From the IMG/VR virus record IMGVR_UViG_3300021185_001231: a stretch of 64,000 nt of DNA. The stretch is one strand, 5' to 3'. Under the pieces are notes generated by a model that saw nothing but the letters and a program-made list of their open reading frames with translations, did no database searches and was not told the DNA's origin. The position numbers and the translations under genes were made by a program. The stretch comes from a virus. Of the stretch, positions 2,817 to 31,210 are shown piece by piece; positions within the stretch are counted from its first letter, which is position 1, and the number at the start of each line of letters is the position of its first letter.

Positions 2817-3512
2817 TTATCTAGTCTTATTTTTCTTCTCTTGTGATACCCATTTCTTAGCAAGTCTAGATGATGGAGGTTTCTTTGACCATTGTCCCAC
2901 ACCTTTATATGCTGCCATAGTTTCTTTCTTAAAATCTTTTCCATCACTGTTATCAACTATGTATGTGTTCGATTTTCCAAACATCTGTTGAAACTTTCCA
3001 ATATTATCTTGTACAGCCTGCCACATAGGAGACAACATTTTTTTACCGATAGATCTTTTACGTTGTGCATCACGATCTACAGCTGTATCAAGGTTAGTGT
3101 TGACAATAATAATGGCAGTTTCATAACCCATTTTTTCAAGTTCTTTTTTCTGCTTCAACATCTTATCAGCATCTTTACCTGTACCATCGATAACAATACC
3201 AAGACGACCCTTAAGGTACATCTCTTTCTTAGTTGATGTAAGTTCTGTTGCCTTACCTCTGAGTTCTTGACCTTTAACAGAGAATATATTATCTGGACTC
3301 ATTTCCATTCCAGCTTTCTTCATTGCATTCTCAAACGCATCATCAGAATTTATTACTCTAAAACCAAAAGAAGTCAGAGCAGTTTTTCCAGCAATAAAAG
3401 ATTTTCCTGAACCCGGCCCTCCAGCAAGGAACACCGCTTTAAATATAGCAGGATCATTTACACCTTCTTCGAGATGTTCCAGTTCCTCACAGAATTGTTT
3501 AAACTTTTTCAC
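2817..3512 (-). CDS. P-loop kinase, zeta-toxin/AAA_33-like
   Basis: AVFLAGGPGSGKS Walker A, INSDD, IVIDGT, RxxxR lid. Confidence 0.75.
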   Translation of the reverse strand: MKKFKQFCEELEHLEEGVNDPAIFKAVFLAGGPGSGKSFIAGKTALTSFGFRVINSDDAFENAMKKAGMEMSPDNIFSVKGQELRGKATELTSTKKEMYLKGRLGIVIDGTGKDADKMLKQKKELEKMGYETAIIIVNTNLDTAVDRDAQRKRSIGKKMLSPMWQAVQDNIGKFQQMFGKSNTYIVDNSDGKDFKKETMAAYKGVGQWSKKPPSSRLAKKWVSQEKKNKTR

Positions 3513-4690: not shown

Positions 4691-4698
4691 TATTTATA
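4691..4698 (-). promoter_or_regulatory. T4-type late promoter
   Basis: TATAAATA about 45 nt upstream of the 4646 start. Confidence 0.65.
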
Positions 4699-6514
4699 TA
4701 AGTTTGGGTTTATAAATGGTTATTAGTTCTTCCTTACCCTTAACCTTTATGTTTCCTATTTCTTGACACCTAAAACTGTCACTTAGTTGTTCCTGTGTAT
4801 AACTAGATATAATAGTCTTATGTTCTAAGTAATCTCCTCGTGCTGCCGTAGCTTCTAGTCTAGCTGCCAAGTTGACTGCATCTCCAATAACCGAATAGTC
4901 AAATCTGGATTCACTACCCATGTTACCAACAATACAATCGCCGGTGTTAATCCCAGTACCAACATTAATGTCAGGAAGACCACGGGCTTTATATATTTCT
5001 TTAAGTTCATTTGTTTTTTCTTCTATCTCAATAGCTGATTTAACTGCCATTTCAGCATGGTTTTCACAGGATAATGGCGCATTCCAAAATGCCATTATGC
5101 AGTCTCCCATATACTTGTCAATAGTTCCTCCATTAGATAATATAATTTTTGTCATAGCGTCTAAGAATTCATTTACCAACTCTACTAATCCTTCAGGGTC
5201 GTCTTTGTTCTTGTAGTGTTCACTGATAGGAGTAAATCCACATATGTCCATAAAAAGAAAGGACATCTCTTTCTTCTCTCCTCCAAGTTTTAGGAGTGAC
5301 GGATCCTTCTGAAGCATGTAGACCATGTCTGGAGATAGATAAGTTCCAAATTGTTTCTTTATCTGCTCTTTGAGTTGGAAAGTAACATAGAATCTATTAA
5401 AAGAAGAGTGCGCAAAAACTACAAAAGATGACATCACCGGATACAATACGTCCAGTAGTATAAGAGATTCCATCCAATAGTAATGACCCACAACAAACCA
5501 ACTAGACATTATTCCTAATGAACCGAGGGCGGAAAACCATGTCGGTGTTTTGTAGACTATGAGAAGGATAAGAAATGAAGACATAATGATGACTAGTATT
5601 TCTAACTGATCTGCATACCAAGGCCTTTGTATTTGAATACCGTTCACTACAGTAGATATTAAGTGTGCTTGGATATCATGAGGCAGCATAGCACCAGTAG
5701 GAGTCGCGACAGGATTGACTAATCCTCCGGCGCTCAAACCCAGTATGATTATTTTTTCATCTGGTAGAGGGTCTCCAAAGGATACTCTTTCGTAGGTGTT
5801 CCAGTAGGCTATTTGTACATTTGAGTTTGGTGTGGTGTACATAAGAGGAAGTGAACCCATTCTCACCCACTCCACTCCAGCTTCTTTTATTTTTATTGCG
5901 AGGTTGGGTTGGAACTCCCAGACACGAAGTATCTCCAAAGCAACGGAAGGATAGAGGTGATCATTAGATAATACTGCTAAAGGAGACTCCCTCACAATAC
6001 CATCTACAGAAGGGGCGACAGTAACAGTTCCGACTCCGGCGGAGTCCTTTCCCATTATAGGATTTCTTATTCCGTTGTAGGAATACAACCAGTCAGAAGG
6101 ATTTCCATTACCGAGTTTGCCGAACCCCCTAGGAGGTGCCTTATTACTCTCTAACTGATTTGTTGTTAATGAAGATAGAATGACATCCCTATTAGACATA
6201 GAAGATATAAATTTTTCATCCCCACCAAACCTATCCCTTTCAGTAAAACCCATATTGAAAACATAGGCACTATTCTCTGGAGAAGACATCAACCAGTCTG
6301 CATATATGTCTCGACTAAACGGAAACTGACCATACCTATCTAAAGCCTTCTCGTCGATATCGACAATGACTATGTTATCCGATCGTATAGGTTCTTGATA
6401 TGACTGAAGAGAATCAAAATAATTTAGTCGGAATTGTTCGACTAGTTTGGGGTCAATTACTCTTACTGTACACAATAGAAGTATTGTTATGAGAACAACT
6501 TTCCAATTATACAT
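4694..6514 (-). CDS. CHASE2-domain membrane class III adenylate cyclase
   Basis: IVIVDIDEKAL..YGQFPFSR (CHASE2), three TMs, then FLFMDICGFT, IDKYMGDCIMAFWNAP, GNMGSESRFDYSVIGDAVNLAARLE with ATP-specifying K/D. Confidence 0.93.
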   Translation of the reverse strand: MYNWKVVLITILLLCTVRVIDPKLVEQFRLNYFDSLQSYQEPIRSDNIVIVDIDEKALDRYGQFPFSRDIYADWLMSSPENSAYVFNMGFTERDRFGGDEKFISSMSNRDVILSSLTTNQLESNKAPPRGFGKLGNGNPSDWLYSYNGIRNPIMGKDSAGVGTVTVAPSVDGIVRESPLAVLSNDHLYPSVALEILRVWEFQPNLAIKIKEAGVEWVRMGSLPLMYTTPNSNVQIAYWNTYERVSFGDPLPDEKIIILGLSAGGLVNPVATPTGAMLPHDIQAHLISTVVNGIQIQRPWYADQLEILVIIMSSFLILLIVYKTPTWFSALGSLGIMSSWFVVGHYYWMESLILLDVLYPVMSSFVVFAHSSFNRFYVTFQLKEQIKKQFGTYLSPDMVYMLQKDPSLLKLGGEKKEMSFLFMDICGFTPISEHYKNKDDPEGLVELVNEFLDAMTKIILSNGGTIDKYMGDCIMAFWNAPLSCENHAEMAVKSAIEIEEKTNELKEIYKARGLPDINVGTGINTGDCIVGNMGSESRFDYSVIGDAVNLAARLEATAARGDYLEHKTIISSYTQEQLSDSFRCQEIGNIKVKGKEELITIYKPKLI

Positions 6515-7433: not shown

Positions 7434-8576
7434 TTAATTAACCTGAGTGATGTTTATAATAACACTCTGTCCGTCACCCAAAACTATTTCAGATTCTTTC
7501 TGATTAGATATAGTTCTTATGGTTGCGTTCTGAGACATTAACAATGTAAGGCTTATTATACCGTCAATGTTTCTATAAAATTTTACAGTTCCTAGACCAG
7601 TGTCGAGTATAGTGTTATACTGAGTGTCGACATTAAACCCTAATGTAGTTCCGGTAAGATCTATTCCCGTATTTAGTTTATCTTTATCTAGTCCTGTCAT
7701 TTTATCTAGATCATCAATAATATCCAAGACATCCTGAAGAAAATCTACATCCAGATAATCAATATCTAGTTCAGTAAATTCCAGATCATCATACTCCAAG
7801 TAATCATTTTCAAGTTCATTAAACTCTAGGAAATCTACATCCAATATATTATCCGAAGAATTTTCAGAAGACAACCCCTCTTCTCTTTTTACATCTTCAA
7901 TTTCTTTCGGTTCTACTATGATGAATATATTGCTAATCATAGAAGTATTGATTCCCGACAAGACGACTGGTTTTGTCGGAGCAGTATCATAGGAGGACAC
8001 CACAGAAGCTTGATAAGGTTCTTCTAATAAAGTTGTTCCACCATTATTGCTTATCATTATCTTTCCGGAAGACTTGCCAGTCTTTTCGTCAGGCAATAAT
8101 ATTATAAGAGATCTTCCGATCTCATCGATAGTGGTGGTGAAGTCTGTCCCAAGAACTGCGATCTGTGCGGTGGGAGTAGTGAGGTTTATATTAGATTTTT
8201 TTATTCTTTTACCGCGTCCAGAAGTAAATCTTGCGGTACCTTGGGCCATGCGGATAGCCATCCTAGACTTGGATGGATCAGGATCGTAGTATGCCTCATC
8301 AATATATATTTTTGTATGTTCTATCAGTGAAAGTTCTTCCTCATCCTTAAACTGAATGAGCATTCTTCCATTACCAGTTACCGCAGTATCCAGCAATTTT
8401 ATTTCTGGGACATTTTTTTCAGAAACAGAGAGTTCCTCACCACCCTTTCGAACTAGTGAGGCAACTCCATTTCTTTCTACTATATCACCAATGGGATCGG
8501 TAGATCCCAGAGATATATTAGTTAGCGTCAGACTGAATAATATTAATATCTGAATGAGTGGTAGCAAACGTCGCAT
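7434..8576 (-). CDS. Exported FecR-domain protein with acidic linker
   Basis: Signal-like N-terminus (MRRLLPLIQILILFSL; start uncertain), DTAVTGNGRMLIQF, GTARF, TPTAQIAVLGTDF FecR motif. Confidence 0.8.
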   Translation of the reverse strand: MRRLLPLIQILILFSLTLTNISLGSTDPIGDIVERNGVASLVRKGGEELSVSEKNVPEIKLLDTAVTGNGRMLIQFKDEEELSLIEHTKIYIDEAYYDPDPSKSRMAIRMAQGTARFTSGRGKRIKKSNINLTTPTAQIAVLGTDFTTTIDEIGRSLIILLPDEKTGKSSGKIMISNNGGTTLLEEPYQASVVSSYDTAPTKPVVLSGINTSMISNIFIIVEPKEIEDVKREEGLSSENSSDNILDVDFLEFNELENDYLEYDDLEFTELDIDYLDVDFLQDVLDIIDDLDKMTGLDKDKLNTGIDLTGTTLGFNVDTQYNTILDTGLGTVKFYRNIDGIISLTLLMSQNATIRTISNQKESEIVLGDGQSVIINITQVN

Positions 8577-9372
8577 CGAGTATTGCATTGTTAGTAACTC
8601 CAGTTGTGGAACCAGTATTCTGACCCACGAAAACAAAGTTATAATCACCAGTCACACCAACTGTTTGTCTGTTATCCGAACCGTCTTCCATACTTGTCTG
8701 AATCCAGTTATTAGATCCAGTAACATCCCAGTTCCAAGTGGCATTGTCCGAATTGAAGAAAACATTCAATGTGTTATCCGAACCAGTAACATCTAGATCC
8801 ATATCTAAAGTATCAGCTGTACCTTCAGTAGGATCCCAAGTTCCCCAGTATGCAGTTTGACCACTATTAGTCCTAGACCAAGTGCTTCCACTAACTGTCC
8901 AAAATTGTTCTGCGTTGGACTGATTCCAGAGGGGAGTGGATATGTTATAAACATCATCCGCATTACCAGCTCTTAGAATAACTGTGTTAGTATTACCCGT
9001 TATAGCAGAATCTATAGTTAGTGTATCTGCATCATTAGCAACACCTATCTTCTGATTCCATATGTTGTAGTTACCTACAGTGAAATTGTTGATAGTCGAA
9101 CCAGTAGTTACGATAGTACCAAACATTTTGTTGTAGTCACCATCTTGTTTTAAATCTAAGTACGAGTTAGAAATTGTCATGGTCATATCAATAGATGTAC
9201 CAGTAAAATCATCTCCACCGTATTTATTACCAGCACCGATTTGTTGTATAGTCAACTCAACGTTATCACCACTCTGTGCAATAAAAATCTCATTGTCGTT
9301 AGCATCACTAGCATAGGTATTAGTCGCAGCAAGACCGAGGACCAAGTATAGTGATTTTTTATTCATCTTCAT
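8518..9372 (-). CDS. Secreted curlin-like repeat protein (CsgA/CsgB-like)
   Basis: Signal peptide; DNEIFIAQSGDNVELTIQQIGAGN and repeated VTGxxN/QxGxxN units. Confidence 0.75.
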   Translation of the reverse strand: MKMNKKSLYLVLGLAATNTYASDANDNEIFIAQSGDNVELTIQQIGAGNKYGGDDFTGTSIDMTMTISNSYLDLKQDGDYNKMFGTIVTTGSTINNFTVGNYNIWNQKIGVANDADTLTIDSAITGNTNTVILRAGNADDVYNISTPLWNQSNAEQFWTVSGSTWSRTNSGQTAYWGTWDPTEGTADTLDMDLDVTGSDNTLNVFFNSDNATWNWDVTGSNNWIQTSMEDGSDNRQTVGVTGDYNFVFVGQNTGSTTGVTNNAILDATFATTHSDINIIQSDAN

Positions 9373-10201
9373 TTGTTTCTCCTATTACCCAATAGCCCCT
9401 GTCGTGCCCTTGGTAAATTAATTCTAATACAGCTTCTTCTACGGCAGCACGTGTTGCATATGTGACACTTTCGTTGAAACCATTTCCATCTTCGAATTCT
9501 ATAAGTTTGGTATCCATATCAACAAACCTAAAGACATCATAACCACCACCAGCAGACAATATAGATTTCCTTGTCTGTACATTAAGTAATATTTCACCAG
9601 TGAGAGTCGATGTTGCCCTAAGACTTATGACAATCGAATCCCTCCTATATTGAGAACTTTTACCTATTCCTAGGTACCTAGCTCCCCTACCACCACTTTC
9701 AATGTTAGTATCATAACCTATGATACCTCCATCAATGATAATACCTGCGAATAGAAGAGGATCGAGTTTATTATCTTTACTTTTCTTCTCCCACTCCTCT
9801 CTCGCAGATCTTATAATCTGTCTCTCTCTAACAAGGTTGTCTAACCCTACTCTATCAACTACCCGAAACCAAGAACCCCCGCCCGCAGTTTTTAATGCGT
9901 CTATTACAAACGCCTCTGCTCCTTGGGTTACCGCAGTAGAAAAATCCGCAATATTATCTCGACTTTTTCTTTGACCTGTCAAGTCTTTAAAACTGTAAAC
10001 CGCAACTATAGGTCTAACCTTAGCTGCCGGAAGATTCGCAAGTTTCTCCGAGGCCGGTAAAGTCACAACCTCAGCACTTTCTCTACACTCATAAACATAT
10101 TGATTCAAAAGACCTTCTCGATCTTCACAATCTATTATGGATGGTCTGGGTATTCCAGCGCAACCCGATAGAATAATAAGAGATAATAAAATTAGTCTCA
10201 T
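9359..10201 (-). CDS. csgG: Curli secretion channel lipoprotein CsgG
   Basis: Lipobox LSGC; VAVYSFKDLTGQRK, FSTAVTQG, WFRVVDRVGLDNLVRERQIIR, GGIIGYDTN. Confidence 0.93.
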   Translation of the reverse strand: MRLILLSLIILSGCAGIPRPSIIDCEDREGLLNQYVYECRESAEVVTLPASEKLANLPAAKVRPIVAVYSFKDLTGQRKSRDNIADFSTAVTQGAEAFVIDALKTAGGGSWFRVVDRVGLDNLVRERQIIRSAREEWEKKSKDNKLDPLLFAGIIIDGGIIGYDTNIESGGRGARYLGIGKSSQYRRDSIVISLRATSTLTGEILLNVQTRKSILSAGGGYDVFRFVDMDTKLIEFEDGNGFNESVTYATRAAVEEAVLELIYQGHDRGYWVIGETNEDE

Positions 10202-10671
10202 TAAAATCCACCAGCACCGATAGGAACATCCAAAGTAGTAACAGTTCCATCTTCACTGACTACCGTGATTCTTATCACGTCAGTACCATCAGCTCCACCA
10301 CCGTATATAGTTTCATAGGTGATAGAGTTTCCTTCAATCTCAAAAAAACCAGACTCCGAGGAATCTGTATTACCAAACATATTGTCTACCAATTGTTTGG
10401 CAATCTGTGCGTATATTCTACTTTCTAAATTACGCAAGAACTTTGCTTGCGTAGTATTGTTTGCATCTCTTTCAGCTTGTGCGATTGCCGATTCTATATC
10501 ATCCTTTATTTCTTCCCTACGAGATCTTTCTTGATTCTCGATAGTAAGATAATGTGAAGAAGTTCCTATACCACTAAAAGAAGGAGATTTAAACTTATGA
10601 GTAATTTGATCTGAGTAAGAGTAAGTTGCATATAGTAATAAACTAATCAGTGTTCCGGTTATTTTTTTCAT
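10201..10671 (-). CDS. csgF: Curli assembly component CsgF
   Basis: Signal peptide then HKFKSPSFSG (cf. F.NP.FGG), FLRNLESRI, C-terminal TTLDVP; directly upstream of csgG. Confidence 0.85.
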   Translation of the reverse strand: MKKITGTLISLLLYATYSYSDQITHKFKSPSFSGIGTSSHYLTIENQERSRREEIKDDIESAIAQAERDANNTTQAKFLRNLESRIYAQIAKQLVDNMFGNTDSSESGFFEIEGNSITYETIYGGGADGTDVIRITVVSEDGTVTTLDVPIGAGGF

Positions 10672-14265: not shown

Positions 14266-14628
14266 TTATCCTTCTTTGTCTAAATCCCACCTTACTATAT
14301 TCTTTCCCCTTAAATAACTAAATAAGGTTTTCTTATTTTTCCACTTGGTTAACCACGGAGCATTATTTCTTTCAGCATCGAGGAAAACCGCATTAGTAAT
14401 AACTGTAGGAATAAGTATCGCAAGGTGAACTCCAATACTAACAGGAATACTATAACCAAGCCATCCAAAATAGTAGATAGCAATCAACCCGAAAAAACCA
14501 CTCCACATGGTGAATAGAGCTAACATAAGATAAGACTGAAGTACAGGATCGGGAATATATCTCAAAGGGTTGAATCGGAGGTCCATAACAGACCTCCAAG
14601 AATTTACTACAAAATCTAAAAATTTCAT
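14266..14628 (-). CDS. Two-TM membrane protein
   Basis: W..VMD.RFNPL motif and two hydrophobic helices. Confidence 0.65.
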   Translation of the reverse strand: MKFLDFVVNSWRSVMDLRFNPLRYIPDPVLQSYLMLALFTMWSGFFGLIAIYYFGWLGYSIPVSIGVHLAILIPTVITNAVFLDAERNNAPWLTKWKNKKTLFSYLRGKNIVRWDLDKEG

Positions 14629-15596
14629 TATGCTGCCTCCGCGAAATCAATTGCTTGAGATAGTGCGACTTGTTTACGGTTTTGATTAGAACCAAACCAC
14701 GCAGAAGTCATTCGAGTATCCGCACTACGACCCATCTCGTGATCAGTCAAGTAAGTTACACTGTTAAGTGCTTGCCACCAAGAACCTCTGCCAAACTCTG
14801 CGCCAGGTTGAGTCTGAAGAACATCAAAGGCCTTCTGACCGTTAGTAGTCAAGTCTTTGTATTCGTTGACAGTAACTTGATTTTTTCCCTGATAAGTTCT
14901 AGGAAAAACTTCGTTGTAGTATTTGATCAAAGATTCTGGAGTAAATCTTTTACTCGCAAGGAACTTCGCAACTTCTTTGTATTCCTCAAATCTACGATGT
15001 GCGATACCCATAGTCACTTTGACATGGTCAGCATCAAACGCACGACGATGGTTAATCTTCGCGCCATTTATAGCACGACCCTTTAGAGCCATCGCAAGAC
15101 TATTCATACATGTTACACGAACCGGAGTGAATCGGATATCAATTGATTTTCCGTACTCGTGAGGGTTAGAGAATAGAAGGTAAGAGTCAACTTGGTCACC
15201 ACCAAGGATGTCGAAAGACTCTTTGATGCGAGCCATTGCATAAACCATCTTACCACCTTTCAGAGAACCAGCGGTAGACATTTCCATACCACCCTCTAAA
15301 CAGTACTCATTGAAAAATTCAAAAGCAGTTTCGTTTTGACAAGGTTCCCAATTACCGCCCACTTGGGTTAGGACCTTATTGTCGGAAGATCGAACGAGAG
15401 CTTCTTTACCAGTAGGTATAAGGTCTACACCGTCCTTTGCGGCAAAAGTAGGACATTTTTCTACGGTCCAATTAGTTCCGGACTTCTCCATCATTTGTTG
15501 TGGAGACAAGTCATTAGAGACTTGAGTTCCAATACCCCAAGGACACTTACCCACAGTCGCAGAGGTTTCTATTTGTAGTACATCGTTCATGCTCAT
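14628..15596 (-). CDS. DUF932/DUF945-like phage protein
   Basis: PWGIG, QNETAFEFF, TAGSLKGGK, YLLFSNPH, TPVRVTCMN, W.ALNSVT...DH. Confidence 0.8.
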   Translation of the reverse strand: MSMNDVLQIETSATVGKCPWGIGTQVSNDLSPQQMMEKSGTNWTVEKCPTFAAKDGVDLIPTGKEALVRSSDNKVLTQVGGNWEPCQNETAFEFFNEYCLEGGMEMSTAGSLKGGKMVYAMARIKESFDILGGDQVDSYLLFSNPHEYGKSIDIRFTPVRVTCMNSLAMALKGRAINGAKINHRRAFDADHVKVTMGIAHRRFEEYKEVAKFLASKRFTPESLIKYYNEVFPRTYQGKNQVTVNEYKDLTTNGQKAFDVLQTQPGAEFGRGSWWQALNSVTYLTDHEMGRSADTRMTSAWFGSNQNRKQVALSQAIDFAEAA

Positions 15597-15682: not shown

Positions 15683-16813
15683 TTAACGAATTATATCAAT
15701 ATCTTCAGCATTAACATTCCAAGTCTCAACTTGGTGACGTAGTCTGTTATCCGACCTAAGATTCTCGTATCGTTTGGAAGCTTTCTTTCTCCACCATTCG
15801 ATGACATTCTCAAGTTCGAATCTATCAAAGTTCTCTTTCTTTATTAATGTATCAGTTTCACCATTAAGATATTGCGGAACATTATCATAACCGTAAGTAG
15901 AATAGAAAGAACGTTTCCTTTCTGTTAATCCTTTAGCATCTAGGAAGGTCTGACAGAACTTCGCATAGGCATCTTCATCACATGACTTGAGAGAGGATTT
16001 GATAATAGATACCATTTTACTTTGGGTTTTCAACTTTCGAGAACTGGCGTCAGCTGGAACCAAATAGTCACCGTCATTGCGTTCCTTGAACCAATCGTTT
16101 AGTCTTCGGAAGTTATCATCATTTATGAGCGGAGCGAAGTTAGAGTCTGTCAGACCGTTAAATCGTAACAATGGTTTCATTCCGTCATACATAGAAGATG
16201 ACTTAGACGAACCATAGAGTGATGTTGTCTCAAACATACAGATATTCGAGTTGTACTTCTTATTGAGAGTTTCTCTTACTGTATGTGAACAACAGATAGC
16301 GGCAAGAAGTTTTCCGCCAAGATAATTAAAACCAAATGGTTGTGTAGGCACAATATTAAAACCCATGATAACAGAATCATTGAATCTCTTCATTGTAGCT
16401 GGGTCTAGAGTATTGAGAGGTTTACCTAACCACTCATTTCTAGGACGAGAATTTATTGTAGGAGAACCGAAACGAATCATGCCCATAACCATTCCGGAAT
16501 TTTTCTCTTTGACCAACCACAGCATTTGTTTGCCTGGGATGCTCTTCTCAACCGGAGCTGAAGTCGTTATTTCCATGTAGGACATAAACTGATCCTGTTT
16601 ACATGGCATTACCACAAATTCCATATCTTTAGGGTGCATATCGAATTTATCAAATAAATCGTTTTCTGGGCCCATGCCGGGCAAAGAATAAGGAAATGTT
16701 TCCATTCTTTCCATTTTTATTTGACGCATATAATCATCAATACGATTAAAGGTATCAAAGAAATTCTCGAATATATTTGCTGCATGGTAAGCATCAGTCT
16801 TGTTTAGAATCAT
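15683..16813 (-). CDS. DUF4338-like (DruA-related) protein
   Basis: IVPTQPFGFNYLGGKLLA and FETTSLYG motifs. Confidence 0.65.
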   Translation of the reverse strand: MILNKTDAYHAANIFENFFDTFNRIDDYMRQIKMERMETFPYSLPGMGPENDLFDKFDMHPKDMEFVVMPCKQDQFMSYMEITTSAPVEKSIPGKQMLWLVKEKNSGMVMGMIRFGSPTINSRPRNEWLGKPLNTLDPATMKRFNDSVIMGFNIVPTQPFGFNYLGGKLLAAICCSHTVRETLNKKYNSNICMFETTSLYGSSKSSSMYDGMKPLLRFNGLTDSNFAPLINDDNFRRLNDWFKERNDGDYLVPADASSRKLKTQSKMVSIIKSSLKSCDEDAYAKFCQTFLDAKGLTERKRSFYSTYGYDNVPQYLNGETDTLIKKENFDRFELENVIEWWRKKASKRYENLRSDNRLRHQVETWNVNAEDIDIIR

Positions 16814-16841: not shown

Positions 16842-16870
16842 ATTATACACTAATCAAAAGAAAAAGTCAA
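16842..16870 (-). promoter_or_regulatory. Sigma70-type promoter
   Basis: TTGACT-17 nt-TATAAT. Confidence 0.75.
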
Positions 16871-18818: not shown

Positions 18819-19856
18819 TTATGCTGCTTCATTCTCTACTTCGATATCAAGTTCAACAACACTCTGTAGACCTATTTGATATTGTTTCTTTAGGAAGTCT
18901 TTGAAGTCAGTTTCTTTAAATATAGGAGACCAGAAGTCTTCTGTGAGAGTAACATCTTTACGAACCTTCTTATCAGTTCCAGCTCGTTGATACCAACCGT
19001 TAGATGGTTTTTCCACATAACCTCCAGCCAATGCCACATCAAGTAGACCCGACCATTTTTCTACACCACCATTCCAAGACACACTGATAGGAATCTTAGA
19101 ATTTTCTTTGGCGTATCGAGACTTCTCAACTTTAATTACAAAATCATAACCAGTAACTTCTGTACCAGTCTTGTTCTGTCTACGACCAATGATCCATACA
19201 TTGTCTGCACTATACATGATACCAGTACCGCCAGAGACAACATCTTTAGGATAGAGACCGATCTCTTTGTATGTATGGTTAATAGCGATCATAGGAATCT
19301 TCTTCATATTTAAGTATGGTGTTGCCATACGGAATAAAGACTTGAACGCTTTTGCACGTGACATATCAGCAACAGACTTACCATCTCTAGCATCATCTAA
19401 TTCTTTCTTAGATGCAAGGTTACCGACAGAGTCAATTACTATAATAACATCATCTTTCTCAGTTAAGTTTTCTAACTGATTGATTAAGTCAAACTTTAAT
19501 TCCTCAACATCTTTGATAGGTACGTGTAATACACGAGTAGTGTCTATACCAAACTGATCAAAATAAGACTGAGGAGATCCAAACTCAGAATCATAAAAAA
19601 GCATCACTGCATCTTTTTTATGTTTAAGGTAAGCACCAGCCATCAATAATGCAAAGGAAGTCTTGAAGTGTTTAGATGGACCAGCAAGAACCGTAAGGCC
19701 TGGCGTTACTCCCCCATCAGTAGAACCAGAGAGTGCTACATTTACCATAGGCACTTCAGTAGGAACCATATCCACTTCAGTAAAAAACTTACTATCCGCA
19801 AGGGTAGAACTATCTTTTACTCTAGACTGTTTTTTCAATTTATCCATTAAATTCAT
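18819..19856 (-). CDS. uvsX: RecA-like recombinase UvsX
   Basis: LAGPSKHFKT, FYDSEFG, IDSVGNLAS, SGGTG, KSRY. Confidence 0.96.
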   Translation of the reverse strand: MNLMDKLKKQSRVKDSSTLADSKFFTEVDMVPTEVPMVNVALSGSTDGGVTPGLTVLAGPSKHFKTSFALLMAGAYLKHKKDAVMLFYDSEFGSPQSYFDQFGIDTTRVLHVPIKDVEELKFDLINQLENLTEKDDVIIVIDSVGNLASKKELDDARDGKSVADMSRAKAFKSLFRMATPYLNMKKIPMIAINHTYKEIGLYPKDVVSGGTGIMYSADNVWIIGRRQNKTGTEVTGYDFVIKVEKSRYAKENSKIPISVSWNGGVEKWSGLLDVALAGGYVEKPSNGWYQRAGTDKKVRKDVTLTEDFWSPIFKETDFKDFLKKQYQIGLQSVVELDIEVENEAA

Positions 19857-20764
19857 TCTTTATCTTCTCCAAAATTCACAAATGTAATATTATTAACTCT
19901 TTCACGATCATCTAACTCATAGTCCTTTCGGTAACGAGTGTTGATATCTAGAATTCTTTCTAGAATATCCATTGATACTATGTTCCCATCTTCATCAGTC
20001 TGTTCAGAAAACTTTAAGAGAGCATTAGTATCTTTCGGCAAACATGCGCCACCGAAACCACGTTTCTTATCGAAGCCCGGCACACGTGTATGACCGATTC
20101 CGACTCTGGGATCTAATCCCACAGTACGTGATATAATATTGTAACTGCAACCATACATATTAATCAAATCATAAATCTGATTAAAGAATGTAACCTTAGT
20201 CGCTAGGTACGAATTGATTGTATACTTTACAAAGGAAGCTTCAAATGCTGTCATATAGTGGTAGTCATTAGATGCACATCCACTAAATATATCATAAATT
20301 TCACTTAGTTCACGAGTTGCAGATTCTGATCCACCCATGACATGATAGTCAGCATTGACAAAGTCCGCCTTGGCATTAGACTCTGTAAGAAACTCTGGGT
20401 TATAAACAAAACGATCCGTATCCTTAAGATCCATAGAACTATAAATCTTATCAATTATATCGGGAGTTACTGTCGATTTAACAACAACTAATGCTTTAGT
20501 ATGGATAAGAGATTTTTGTACTGCATCAATAACAATAGTAGCATCAACCTTACCATCTTCGCCTTGTGGTGTTGGTGCGCATACGAATACGAGATGAGGA
20601 GAAAACTCTTTCAAGTCATCAATGGAAGTATTATATTTTGGGTCTACAGCATAAGACTTCACCAAAGGATGGGTGAATGCATATTCTACAGCCTGTCCAA
20701 CAAACCCATGACCTACTATAGCAAGTCGGAATTGGTTATTAGGACTCAATGGTTCATTATTCAT
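19853..20764 (-). CDS. UDP-glucose/GDP-mannose dehydrogenase family (short form)
   Basis: GHGFVG, VCAPTP, KSTVTP, NPEFL, KY..N.YLA.K, GFGGACLPKD. Confidence 0.88.
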   Translation of the reverse strand: MNNEPLSPNNQFRLAIVGHGFVGQAVEYAFTHPLVKSYAVDPKYNTSIDDLKEFSPHLVFVCAPTPQGEDGKVDATIVIDAVQKSLIHTKALVVVKSTVTPDIIDKIYSSMDLKDTDRFVYNPEFLTESNAKADFVNADYHVMGGSESATRELSEIYDIFSGCASNDYHYMTAFEASFVKYTINSYLATKVTFFNQIYDLINMYGCSYNIISRTVGLDPRVGIGHTRVPGFDKKRGFGGACLPKDTNALLKFSEQTDEDGNIVSMDILERILDINTRYRKDYELDDRERVNNITFVNFGEDKE

Positions 20765-21711
20765 TATTTAACCTTATGGTAATCTTTGTACCACGCATAA
20801 AAGTTTTTAATACCGTCTTCGATATTAGTTTTAGGGACGTAACCCAATCCCTCCAGTTTAGTCGTATTAGACCAAGTCTCTAAAGAATCTGCTGGATGTC
20901 TAGGAACCAAATCAATTATGGCATCTATACCACAGTTCTTTTCAATCTCCCTTACAAAATGCATAAGGTCAACTTGTTTGCCACGACCAATATTAAAGAT
21001 TTCACTATTCCCAATTTCATTATTGTGAATAACGATTTCAATACCATCTAAGATATCTTCAACGTATGTGAAGTCTCTTTTCATATTACCATAATTATAC
21101 ACTTTTATTTCGTTTTTGTCAAGTATATTTTTAGTAAAATCAAACAAAGCCATATCGGGTCTTCCCCAAGGGCCATATACAGTAAAGAATCTAAGTCCTG
21201 TATTATTCAGTCCAGATATCTCAAACTGAATTTCGTTGATGTATTTGGTATAAGTGTAGGCGTTTAACTGTTTTCCGAGTATCTGATTTTCTTTCCATCC
21301 ATCTTCAGGTATCTCGGTTCCACCAAACACACCAGAAGTTGATGCATAAATGACTCTAACATCAGGAACAACTTCCTTACACATTTCAATAAGGTTTTGT
21401 GTACCGTCAATGTTGTTTGCATGGTATTCAGATTCCTTTCCGAAAGAATCTCTAACTCCAGCATGTGCCGCAAGGTGAACTATAGTATCAGGTCTAAAGT
21501 CACCCAATACAATTCTTAATCCATCCCTATCTCTCAGATCACATTCAGAAACATCTAATCCAAAATGATTTACTCTATCTCTTTTCAGTTCTGGTTCATA
21601 AAGATGATTGTTGTAGTTATCTAAACCACGAACATCATGTCCACTATTCCTTAACCTATTTGTTAATTGTGAACCGATAAATCCTGCGGCTCCAGTTACT
21701 AATATTTTCAT
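20764..21711 (-). CDS. NAD-dependent epimerase, UDP-glucuronate 4-epimerase-like
   Basis: TGAAGFIG, HLAAHAGVR, YxxxK (YTYTK), RFFTVYGPWGRPDMA, RDFTYVED. Confidence 0.88.
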   Translation of the reverse strand: MKILVTGAAGFIGSQLTNRLRNSGHDVRGLDNYNNHLYEPELKRDRVNHFGLDVSECDLRDRDGLRIVLGDFRPDTIVHLAAHAGVRDSFGKESEYHANNIDGTQNLIEMCKEVVPDVRVIYASTSGVFGGTEIPEDGWKENQILGKQLNAYTYTKYINEIQFEISGLNNTGLRFFTVYGPWGRPDMALFDFTKNILDKNEIKVYNYGNMKRDFTYVEDILDGIEIVIHNNEIGNSEIFNIGRGKQVDLMHFVREIEKNCGIDAIIDLVPRHPADSLETWSNTTKLEGLGYVPKTNIEDGIKNFYAWYKDYHKVK

Positions 21712-22655
21712 TAACCTTTCCTATAAACGTATTCTAGCGCTCTATCGGCTTCTACGATAATTGGACGATTCTCATACCAATTGCCATTACAAGCGTCAAA
21801 CTCTTTACACAATTCAGCAATCTGAATTGCAGTTATTGGGTATCCTTTCTTTATAGCGTTTCCAGCTATCGCTATCATTATCTGGTACATTTTTGCGTAC
21901 CATCCAGTTCCAGTTATAGTTTGATATTCCATCGCCATTCTTTTTGGAAAGAATGGACAATCTCTAAAACCCGTCCATCGATACTCAGTATTATTTAGAC
22001 TATTCTTACGATGTTCTATGACCGCACTTTGCATTTGTGGTGGTAATCTATCAAGAAAAGAATTTCCGGTCTTCTGAACATAAGGATGTTTAGAGATAAG
22101 TTCGGAAGTGTTTAATGCCTTACCAGATGTATTATGAAAAATAAAACCATAGGCGTCAGGATAATCAGCTGGTACATAATACATACGCGCCAAGTCTTTA
22201 GTTTGCGGATCTCCCATTTCCCCCAGTTCGGTATTGAGGGCGTGCCAGAACGCTTTGATATTATCTCTCTGTATCTGTTCATCAATCCTAAATACAATAC
22301 GAAATTTAAGATAATCCATGCGACTAGAAGCAGTGCTATAAACCACATAATCGACATCTCCCAGTTGTTCAGAAAGTTGTTCATTTAGAGTGTCCACACT
22401 GTTAGAAAACCTATGAGTATCAACATCAACAGCACACCAACCACCCCAATATAAAGTATTGTCATTAGAACGCGTACTATCGGTTTTAAAAACAGCAGGA
22501 CTAATAAGAGGACTAGAATTATTTCCACCTTTCTTTCCTTTTTGTTTGATCAATCCATAAAGTTCTTGGACGAACTTATCCCAAGTATCGTAAGAAACTT
22601 TTCTATGAGTCTTGTTATCAAACTGATTTTTGAATATAGTTAATTCGTAATTCAT
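21711..22655 (-). CDS. Putative AEP/prim-pol-type primase
   Basis: AVDVD, YSTASS...KFRIVF, D...KDLARMYYVP, helical C-terminal domain; next to gp43. Confidence 0.6.
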   Translation of the reverse strand: MNYELTIFKNQFDNKTHRKVSYDTWDKFVQELYGLIKQKGKKGGNNSSPLISPAVFKTDSTRSNDNTLYWGGWCAVDVDTHRFSNSVDTLNEQLSEQLGDVDYVVYSTASSRMDYLKFRIVFRIDEQIQRDNIKAFWHALNTELGEMGDPQTKDLARMYYVPADYPDAYGFIFHNTSGKALNTSELISKHPYVQKTGNSFLDRLPPQMQSAVIEHRKNSLNNTEYRWTGFRDCPFFPKRMAMEYQTITGTGWYAKMYQIMIAIAGNAIKKGYPITAIQIAELCKEFDACNGNWYENRPIIVEADRALEYVYRKG

Positions 22656-29799: not shown

Positions 29800-29955
29800 T
29801 ATCTTAATAGTTGTGTACATGTTCGGCCCGCCCTATATCTAGACAACCAGATCTAAACATTAGTCTCTTAATCAGTCGACGGGCAACCGATTCGTATTCC
29901 AATCAACTAGGTTGTGTATGAAAGAACTGGACTGGAAAACAGTTCTTTCGGGTTT
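29800..29955 (-). ncRNA. Candidate structured ncRNA downstream of tRNA array
   Basis: No sizeable minus-strand ORF; perfect 10-bp hairpin plus nested stems whose G-U pairs work on the minus strand. Confidence 0.4.
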
Positions 29956-29960
29956 CGGTG

Positions 29961-30037
29961 TGGCACGCCCGGCACGATTCGAACGTGCGACCCACAGCTT
30001 AGAAGGCTGTTGCTCTATCCAACTGAGCTACGGGCGC
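29961..30037 (-). tRNA. tRNA-Arg(UCU)
   Basis: Full cloverleaf, ACAGC-CT-TCT-AA-GCTGT, GTTCGAATC, encoded CCA. Confidence 0.95.
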
Positions 30038-30041
30038 ATAT

Positions 30042-30117
30042 TGGAGCGGATAGTCGGGTTCGAACCGACGACCTCGACCTTGGCAAGGTTGCGCTCTACC
30101 AACTGAGCTATATCCGC
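30042..30117 (-). tRNA. tRNA-Gly(GCC)
   Basis: Cloverleaf, anticodon loop TT-GCC-AA, GGTTCGAAC, U73, encoded CCA. Confidence 0.95.
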
Positions 30118-30122
30118 AATAT

Positions 30123-30192
30123 TGGAGCGGAGTGTAGGAACTTCCCCTACCTTCAATGAGTGGTACTCATCGACCCAATAACTGACCTCCGC
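30123..30192 (-). ncRNA. Non-canonical tRNA-like RNA with Gly acceptor and ACC anticodon
   Basis: GCGGAG/CTCCGC-T-CCA acceptor; GATGA-GTACCAC-TCATT arm; GTAGG-GGAAGTT-CCTAC arm; shortened D region. Confidence 0.7.
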
Positions 30193-30197
30193 AAATT

Positions 30198-30273
30198 TGG
30201 CATCCCATACCGGATTCGAACCGATGTTGCTAGGATGAAAACCTAGTGTCCTAACCAACTAGACGAATGGGAC
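30198..30273 (-). tRNA. tRNA-Glu(UUC)
   Basis: Cloverleaf, CTAGG-TT-TTC-AT-CCTAG, GGTTCGAATCC, encoded CCA. Confidence 0.95.
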
Positions 30274-31181: not shown

Positions 31182-31210
31182 ATTATACACTATTTCTACA
31201 CTTTTGTAAA
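31182..31210 (-). promoter_or_regulatory. Sigma70-type promoter of gp45
   Basis: TTTACA-17 nt-TATAAT. Confidence 0.8.

Follow-up and report, generated by a model that had tools for sequence, protein, structure and literature searches.

The window, by which we mean the whole 64,000-nt stretch of viral DNA analyzed here, contains the replication module of a T4-like myovirus and has a G+C content of about 37%. Genes of the module include the gp43 polymerase, regA, gp62, a MazG-like gene, gp44, a set of tRNAs, a 63-codon ORF and gp45, together with gp46/47, a gp41-like helicase and UvsX. Judged by its sliding clamp, the phage has no close cultured relative: the nearest cultured match stands at 62% (Phage C48C1), followed by cyanophages and phages of Pelagibacter and Methylophilales at about 40%. 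A BLASTN search of the tRNA region against cultured phages returned ordinary tRNA matches only. Within the tRNA set, the gap between tRNA-Glu and tRNA-Gly is filled by a 70-nt unit, hereafter X, which is set off by 5-nt spacers on both sides. The genes and signals around it are as follows:

31182-31210, minus strand: sigma-70-like promoter TTTACA-17-TATAAT ahead of gp45 (consensus match only)
30198-30273, minus strand: tRNA-Glu(UUC), 5 nt upstream of X (ARAGORN, Rfam)
30123-30192, minus strand: X, a 70-nt tRNA-Gly-derived RNA (covariance model R1, 98.9 bits; kept in relatives)
30042-30117, minus strand: canonical tRNA-Gly(GCC), 5 nt downstream of X, with the 3' end CCGCUCCA common to X (ARAGORN, Rfam)
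29961-30037, minus strand: tRNA-Arg(UCU), the last gene of the cluster (ARAGORN, Rfam)

No terminator-like site was found between the gp45 promoter and the tRNA cluster. An earlier note on this DNA had already delimited the 70-nt unit between tRNA-Glu and tRNA-Gly with the right coordinates, and its strand is corrected here to minus. A plus-strand tRNA reading of 30123-30192 was dropped because the genes and tRNAs here all lie on the minus strand. X is thus read from 30192 to 30123 (GCGGAGG...ACTCCGC-U-CCA), and position p of the unit lies at 30193-p in the window. The adjacent tRNA-Gly(GCC) is likely the paralogous source of X. One further match to model R1 in the window, at 14571-14599, is weak (19.6 bits) and resembles chance.

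A separate structured intergenic element of about 125 nt lies between tRNA-Arg and the gp44 promoter (29826-29949, minus strand). It consists of a 10-bp hairpin followed by a 7-bp helix around an 11-bp hairpin, is kept in four relatives (L013, L014, L015 and L017) with both sides changed in 6 pairs, and has no Rfam match. In L017, where the tRNAs are absent, the counterpart of this element directly follows X.

The layout of X reads GCGGAGG, a 12-nt connector, an 8-bp hairpin with the loop UACCA, the dinucleotide GA, the arm GUAGG-GGAAGUU-CCUAC, and finally ACUCCGC-U-CCA. Its parts lie on the window as follows:

30186-30192, minus strand: acceptor 5' strand GCGGAGG, pairing with 30127-30133 (ACUCCGC)
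30175-30185, minus strand: residual mini D arm, a 3-bp helix (unit positions 8-10 with 16-18) with a 5-nt loop (RNAalifold)
30153-30173, minus strand: 8-bp hairpin (unit positions 20-27 with 33-40), with the 5-nt loop UACCA at 30161-30165
30134-30150, minus strand: T-like arm, a 5-bp stem GUAGG/CCUAC with the 7-nt loop GGAAGUU, without a T-Psi-C motif
30123-30126, minus strand: U discriminator and encoded CCA (sequence)

The acceptor forms 6 bp (G1-C, C2-G, G3-C, G4-C, A5-U and G6-C) and then a G7.A66 mismatch. The sequence agrees with the earlier reading of a GCGGAG/CTCCGC acceptor, a U discriminator and CCA, with a 3' end common to the adjacent tRNA-Gly, and it confirms the T-like arm GUAGG/CCUAC, whose loop (GGAAGTT in the DNA) takes the place of a canonical TTCRANN and had been described as replacing TTCGAAT. 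The D region lacks both the 4-bp D stem and the conserved GG. Compared with a canonical elongator tRNA (RF00005), X lacks recognition by the model, the 7-nt U33 loop, and the elbow made up of the 4-bp D stem, G18G19 and T-Psi-C-R-A.

X was missed by ARAGORN in its default and -ps modes, as the earlier note had expected, and it had no match to RF00005 or to any other Rfam family at the gathering threshold or at E<=10. The sole ARAGORN mode to call X was the metazoan-mitochondrial one with a lowered threshold, which reported Gly(acc) with exactly the 70-nt ends of X. The single-sequence fold has a z of only -2.5.

Pattern scans of IMG/VR recovered the X element in other T4-like contigs, and the sliding clamps of the X-bearing phages are 57-93% identical to that of the window. 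There are eight distinct versions of 69-70 nt (the window, L001, L011, L014, L004/L017, L003, L094 and L098) and a 68-nt class (L053, L103, L104 and L105, plus a tandem second copy in L104). The conserved shape comprises an acceptor stem of 6-7 bp followed by U73 and CCA, a mini D helix of 3 bp, a hairpin of 8 bp whose loop reads NNCCN, and a T-like arm of 5 bp whose loop is not of the TΨC type.

A search for compensatory changes in related phages had been proposed in the earlier note, and such changes are present. Our main covariation test used a MAFFT alignment of 10 sequences and covered three helices, those of the acceptor, hairpin and T-like arm. In this alignment 95% of cells were paired, compared with 84% in shuffles, and 10 pairs had changed on both sides; the covariation score was 0.350 against 0.05-0.13 in shuffles, with 0 of 500 shuffles as good. 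A 13-sequence test of the acceptor and T arm gave 92.9% pairing, 5 double-changed pairs and a covariation score of 0.221, which again was equaled by 0 of 500 shuffles. In controls with slid partners, pairing fell to 41-61%.

Helix by helix, the 8-bp hairpin had 97.5% of its cells paired and 7 of its 8 pairs changed on both sides, and the T-like arm was 100% paired across 13 sequences with double changes in 3 of 5 pairs. Acceptor pairs 1-6 do not vary. Pair 7:60 is mostly G.A, becoming U.G in L003 and A-U in L004. RNAalifold, run blind, recovered the same helices and added the covarying 3-bp mini D helix (pair 8:18 is UA in 5 sequences, CG in 2, GC in 2 and UG in 1; pair 9:17 is CG in 8 and UA in 2). 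The D region is therefore shrunken, as had been claimed, but not structureless. Similarly, the description of intact arm stems holds for the T-like arm, but the anticodon arm is in fact an 8-bp hairpin with a 5-nt rather than a 7-nt loop. This loop size follows from position 32:38, which is a covarying Watson-Crick pair (G-C in 8 sequences, A-U in 2) and so leaves a conserved loop of 5 nt on an 8-bp stem. A 6-bp/triloop version of the hairpin was rejected because relatives do not keep the U28-A32 pair; the zipping of the loop into a triloop, suggested earlier, is a peculiarity of the window copy.

The 3' end deviates in two contigs, with UCUA in L014 and no CCA in L213. In L014 the tRNA-Gly(GCC) has been deleted and X kept (L014:4970-5120), apparently after X and the tRNA recombined at their identical 3' ends. 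The helices preserved through double changes rule out pseudogene decay, and the earlier argument that preserved stems with rewritten loops speak against decay is borne out by the compensatory changes and the invariant identity positions in homologs. At the level of sequence, we regard conservation and covariation across divergent phages as decisive in indicating that X is more than chance.

An exact T-arm scan also gave matches in L002, L005, L006 and L009, which were dismissed as chance, and one metagenome scan, whose pattern was anchored in the 5' half of X, gave only chance matches in high-GC coding DNA. In bacterial and archaeal genomes searched with one acceptor pattern, 0 of the 120 matches listed passed the T-stem and CC-hairpin filter, which is weak evidence of absence and applies to that acceptor sequence only.

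The identity set of bacterial alpha2beta2 GlyRS consists of G1-C72, C2-G71, G3-C70, U73, C35 and C36. All six elements are present in X and invariant in 13 aligned sequences of 68-70 nt, so the GlyRS determinants recognized in the earlier note extend to the homologs. Invariant positions of the alignment are G1-C, C2-G, G3-C, G4-C, G6-C, the U discriminator and the two mid-loop C's (30162-30163 in the window, unit C30 and C31), and the CCA is almost always present. The loops are divergent: the base preceding the loop CC is A, G, U or C among relatives, the '33' base is U, A, G or C, so that U33 is not conserved, and the T loops read UGAAACU, UGAGACU or UGCAAAU, with T-Psi-C absent. Taken together, invariant identity elements and divergent loops mean that the GlyRS set was kept while decoding features were lost. 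The label 'ACC anticodon' given earlier is accordingly misleading, since the loop has 5 nt and its only conserved part is CC, preceded by any of the four bases. Selection on GlyRS recognition and on a tRNA-like acceptor/T stack, without decoding, would be expected to produce a pattern of this kind. Part of what we consider the best explanation, which as a whole we hold to be somewhat probable, is that X descends from a phage tRNA-Gly and has shrunk yet remained functional.

The window also encodes a candidate enzyme partner, 13.3 kb downstream of X:

16842-16870, minus strand: sigma-70-like promoter TTGACT-17-TATAAT immediately preceding the DruA-like gene (consensus match only)
15683-16813, minus strand: DruA-family (PF14236) GNAT-fold gene, the proposed partner (phmmer with DruA-like proteins; Pfam)

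The protein scores 42.2 bits against Pfam DruA (gathering cut-off 27, E = 7e-11), and its Pfam search returned PF14236 only, the Mom family PF25680 not being matched. It has 6496 homologs, with PF14236 in all of those listed and thousands in marine assemblies. The AF2 model has a mean pLDDT of 78.7 and a GNAT fold. VIA-align ranked Mu Mom first (8bv8_B, Z 9.0, rmsd 4.2, 175 residues) and FemA second (Z 8.6), two GNATs that depend on aminoacyl-tRNA, with generic GNATs next at a Z of about 8.3; because these lie less than 1 Z below Mom, the structural ranking is suggestive only. Foldseek returned only generic GNATs for the model (E about 4e-3), an hhalign comparison of DruA-like with a few Mom-like sequences was not significant (E 0.47), and PDB sequence searches with the DruA-like protein and its profile gave no match.

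Directly downstream of the DruA-like gene lies a DUF932 gene (14628-15596, minus strand) with a perfect TTGACA-17-TATAAT promoter.

A DruA-like gene is present in every X-bearing contig that could be assessed, two small fragments being not assessable. The X-bearing contigs G001 and G002 (>90% complete) carry a 75%-identical DruA-like gene, and in G003 the start of the gene lies at the contig end. Among relatives without X, the DruA-positive G006, G008 and G010 have exactly one tRNA-Gly-type gene each (in G006 and G008 it follows the DruA-like gene at a distance of about 1.1 kb), and the DruA-negative G007 (complete) and G009 (partial) are without one; these counts come from few related contigs, which are not phylogenetically independent. 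Model R1 found no copy in G006-G010, nor next to DruA in HTVC008M, S-SSM7 and S-CAM9. The DruA-positive relatives among G006-G010 and these three phages have, instead of the X form, Gly genes that are closer to a tRNA.

Around 80 further DruA-like genes, 18 of 24 tRNA-like genes were of Gly type and shared the strand of the DruA-like gene, and 13 of these lay no more than 1.5 kb away. Counting ARAGORN tRNAs around the 80 DruA-like genes, 14 of 20 were Gly; in a comparison set around 80 gp45 genes, 9 of 52 were Gly-type. A nearby Gly-type RNA is absent at 62 of the 80 DruA-like loci, most loci being short fragments. The counts around these loci, too, are not phylogenetically independent.

The RNAs form a graded series. 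It begins at canonical tRNA-Gly(UCC), passes through cloverleaves whose T and D loops are broken and ends in the window's form without a D stem; the intermediates have UGCAAUN-type T loops, D loops lacking GG, and UCC or ACC. One intermediate is found in the cultured Pelagibacter phage HTVC008M, whose tRNA-Gly(ACC) has the T loop AGCGUUA (NC_020484.1, 91140-91213, equal to L150:1641-1714). It is the only tRNA-like gene of that phage, falls in a gap without an annotated feature in the RefSeq record, and lies 8 kb from the DruA-like gp122. The cultured DruA-positive cyanophages S-SSM7 and S-CAM9 have an ordinary tRNA-Gly(UCC), and since they pair the enzyme with it, a mimic is not required by the enzyme.

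In the complete relative G006, the DruA-like match (G006:C1:53616-54746, L125) contains one in-frame TAA. A protein cluster of 376 aa exists as well, so the stop could stem from where the match was bounded.

A looser scan, in which only the acceptor strands were specified, uncovered a wider family. One class, of 75 nt, has a D-like hairpin of 5 bp (L099, L106/L108/L117, L111 and L115), and the other group consists of 68-nt copies in L104, L105 and L113 that lie outside T4-like tRNA clusters; neither group has an ARAGORN or Rfam call. All 9 of the 9 viral-contig copies outside T4-like tRNA clusters adjoin a Mom or a DruA-family gene, with Mom in L099, L106, L108, L117 and L115 and DruA-family genes in L104, L105, L113 and L111. 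The Mom-like proteins next to the 75-nt RNAs match the Mu Mom sequence (PDB 8bv8, E = 1e-33) and fall in the Pfam Mom family PF25680, and the arginine of ELNR and the serine of PRNxES are invariant in them. At L104:4500-4720, a DruA-family gene is followed by two tandem tRNA-Gly mimics of 69 and 68 nt, which have differing acceptor sequences, C-rich loops and one strong promoter of the TTGACT-17-TAATAAT type.

In the high-GC phages among these (L099:67-819, L106:5003-5764, L108:3306-4067 and L117:351-1103), the Mom frame has no stop past the end of homology and runs through the 75-nt element, so that excision of the RNA would cut the 3' end of the mRNA.

Phage Mu Mom has the catalytic residues R111 and S124 and an HTH-like insertion. 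Mu Mom transfers glycine from Gly-tRNAGly to the N6 of adenine in double-stranded DNA, converting dA to 6-NcmdA (Silva et al., Nat Commun 2026, PMC13219725). It accepts all three E. coli tRNA-Gly isoacceptors and rejects Gly-tRNAAla (PMC13219725), from which it follows that Mom probably reads the acceptor end. That paper mentions neither a phage-encoded carrier RNA nor DruA (PMC13219725). Our case resembles Mom (PF25680, 8bv8) in that a phage GNAT would use the glycine of a tRNA-Gly and in that a 75-nt relative of X stands beside true Mom homologs. However, Mu uses the ordinary tRNA-Gly isoacceptors of its host, and the window enzyme belongs to PF14236, not to PF25680.

A second parallel comes from Staphylococcus aureus, where non-proteinogenic tRNA-Gly species reportedly serve as donors for the GNAT-fold transferases FemX, FemA and FemB. 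As in S. aureus, glycine identity is kept in X, the elbow and the fitness for EF-Tu and the ribosome are reduced, and a GNAT-fold transferase is encoded in the same genome, although the partnership is our own proposal here. The S. aureus tRNA-Gly differs in having a full cloverleaf and a 7-nt UCC anticodon loop, in being encoded by the cell, and in feeding cell-wall synthesis. X, in contrast, is phage-encoded, lacks a 4-bp D stem, carries a loop of 5 nt, and has a presumed partner of the DruA family that is encoded in a DNA-replication module. The use of charged tRNA by Fem enzymes is also cited in the Mom study (PMC13219725).

Two further comparisons are narrower. The metazoan mitochondrial tRNAs that lack a D arm are similar to X in the reduced D region, the non-canonical T loop and the mitochondrial ARAGORN call of Gly(acc). 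Such tRNAs decode with 7-nt anticodon loops, and there is no evolutionary relation, X having come from a bacterial-type phage tRNA-Gly. As for the enzyme, DruA is a component of bacterial defence. The window protein is like it in scoring above the Pfam DruA cut-off but differs in being encoded singly by a phage, in company with an RNA of tRNA-Gly type. DruA of Druantia (PF14236, formerly DUF4338) is called a GNAT domain in PMC10853773. X adds to two known kinds of system, the non-proteinogenic tRNA-Gly that serves a GNAT transferase and the tRNA-dependent modification carried out by Mom.

With the observed anatomy, conservation, covariation, gene linkage and enzyme fold in hand, we lean, with modest confidence, toward X being a dedicated non-ribosomal glycyl carrier for the DruA-family enzyme of the window; how it is processed, charged, kept out of translation and used by the enzyme, and on which target, is inferred as follows. 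X would be co-transcribed with gp45, the 63-codon ORF and the three tRNAs. The tRNA-processing enzymes could then excise it like a tRNA, of which it retains the 12-bp acceptor/T-arm stack, the tRNA-like 4-5-nt spacers and the encoded CCA. The host's bacterial-type GlyRS would glycylate it through the equivalents of G1-C72, C2-G71, G3-C70, U73 and C35/C36, and the ribosome would ignore it, given the 5-nt loop, the covarying closing pair and the lack of both a conserved U33 and a G18G19/T-Psi-C elbow. Glycyl-X may thereby act as a private donor of activated glycine for the DruA-family GNAT (15683-16813). Such a carrier would spare the translational pool of tRNA-Gly and would not be contested by EF-Tu and the ribosome, in the manner of the S. 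aureus Fem system. By analogy, the most likely target of the enzyme is phage DNA, which we favor because the gene lies in the replication module and because Mom modifies DNA. Because X lies 13.3 kb from the enzyme gene, the case for a link between them draws on co-occurrence in a small number of related contigs and on adjacency in other lineages. The normal tRNA-Gly next to X in the same phage counts against a carrier. Of the two roles put forward in the earlier note, that of a glycine donor is backed by the linkage to Mom and DruA, by the DruA gene of the window and by Mom's use of Gly-tRNAGly, but for the decoy we found no specific support.

It is possible, if on balance unlikely, that X has some other non-translational role: processing or punctuation of the tRNA transcript, regulation through binding of the DruA-like protein or GlyRS with no glycine donated, or service as the substrate of a different phage enzyme. 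X is conserved and structured and sits with tRNA-like spacing between tRNAs, all of which would suit these roles, and the linkage to enzyme genes fits a regulatory partner too. A processing signal, however, would have no need of an invariant loop CC together with U73 and the G1-G3 pairs that make up GlyRS identity, and no other candidate partner enzyme was seen among the window ORFs scanned.

We consider it improbable that X, charged or uncharged, is instead a decoy or sponge for a host factor that attacks tRNA-Gly or Gly-tRNAGly, or a titrator of GlyRS, and so protects or reprograms translation. GNAT toxins of the TacT type acetylate Gly-tRNAGly, and such toxins read the acceptor end, the discriminator and the CCA. 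These are the parts that X conserves while its decoding features are lost, and its position in the tRNA cluster, away from the enzyme gene in the window, would also agree with a decoy. On the other hand, no defence gene or toxin is tied to X, and the normal anticodon loop that anticodon nucleases need is exactly what X has lost. Furthermore, a general decoy would have no need of the repeated linkage of related RNAs to Mom and DruA genes.

An odd but working tRNA-Gly that decodes GGN codons is highly improbable. Glycine identity, the encoded CCA and the place in the tRNA cluster would all be expected of it, and ARAGORN calls the intermediate relatives tRNA-Gly(UCC/ACC). X has, however, a 5-nt loop with a covarying Watson-Crick closure, no conserved U33, all four bases at position 34, neither a T-Psi-C/GG elbow nor a 4-bp D stem, and a canonical tRNA-Gly(GCC) only 5 nt away. 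Least credible of all is a decaying pseudogene from a duplication of the neighboring tRNA-Gly, for even though the 3' end is common to tRNA-Gly(GCC), tRNA finders miss X and the z is only -2.5, the homologs number at least 10 distinct copies rather than recent copies of one sequence, in phages whose clamps are 57-93% identical, every helix is kept through double changes, slid and shuffled controls fail, and the X of L014 outlived the real tRNA-Gly.

Returning to the glycyl carrier, full-text literature searches found no paper describing such a phage RNA. The more general proposition, that a virus encodes an aminoacyl-carrier RNA which has been taken out of translation, is charged by the host GlyRS and is reserved for a DruA-type GNAT that glycylates DNA or another target, is one we put forward tentatively, as plausible but somewhat short of probable. 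If true, abundant ocean phages, relatives of the myoviruses of SAR11 and cyanobacteria, would bring with them an activated-glycine carrier insulated from the ribosome. The tRNA-dependent DNA hypermodification of Mom would then extend to a much larger enzyme family, Mom-like chemistry would be widespread in abundant marine T4-like phages, and the DruA family of the Druantia defence would receive its first biochemical activity. X would also add a class of small RNA that standard tRNA finders and Rfam miss.

Elsewhere in the window, three minus-strand genes (19853-22655) separate UvsX from the DNA polymerase: one resembles a UDP-glucose/GDP-mannose dehydrogenase, one encodes an NAD-dependent epimerase/dehydratase, and the third, of 314 aa, is without a Pfam match. 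These could serve sugar synthesis for DNA or surface modification. Finally, the window carries cargo that is unusual in a T4-like phage, with a Zeta-toxin-like kinase, a CHASE2-adenylate/guanylate cyclase, a FecR-domain protein and CsgG/CsgF-like curli secretion proteins encoded on the minus strand at 2817-3512, 4694-6514, 7434-8648 and 9359-10671.
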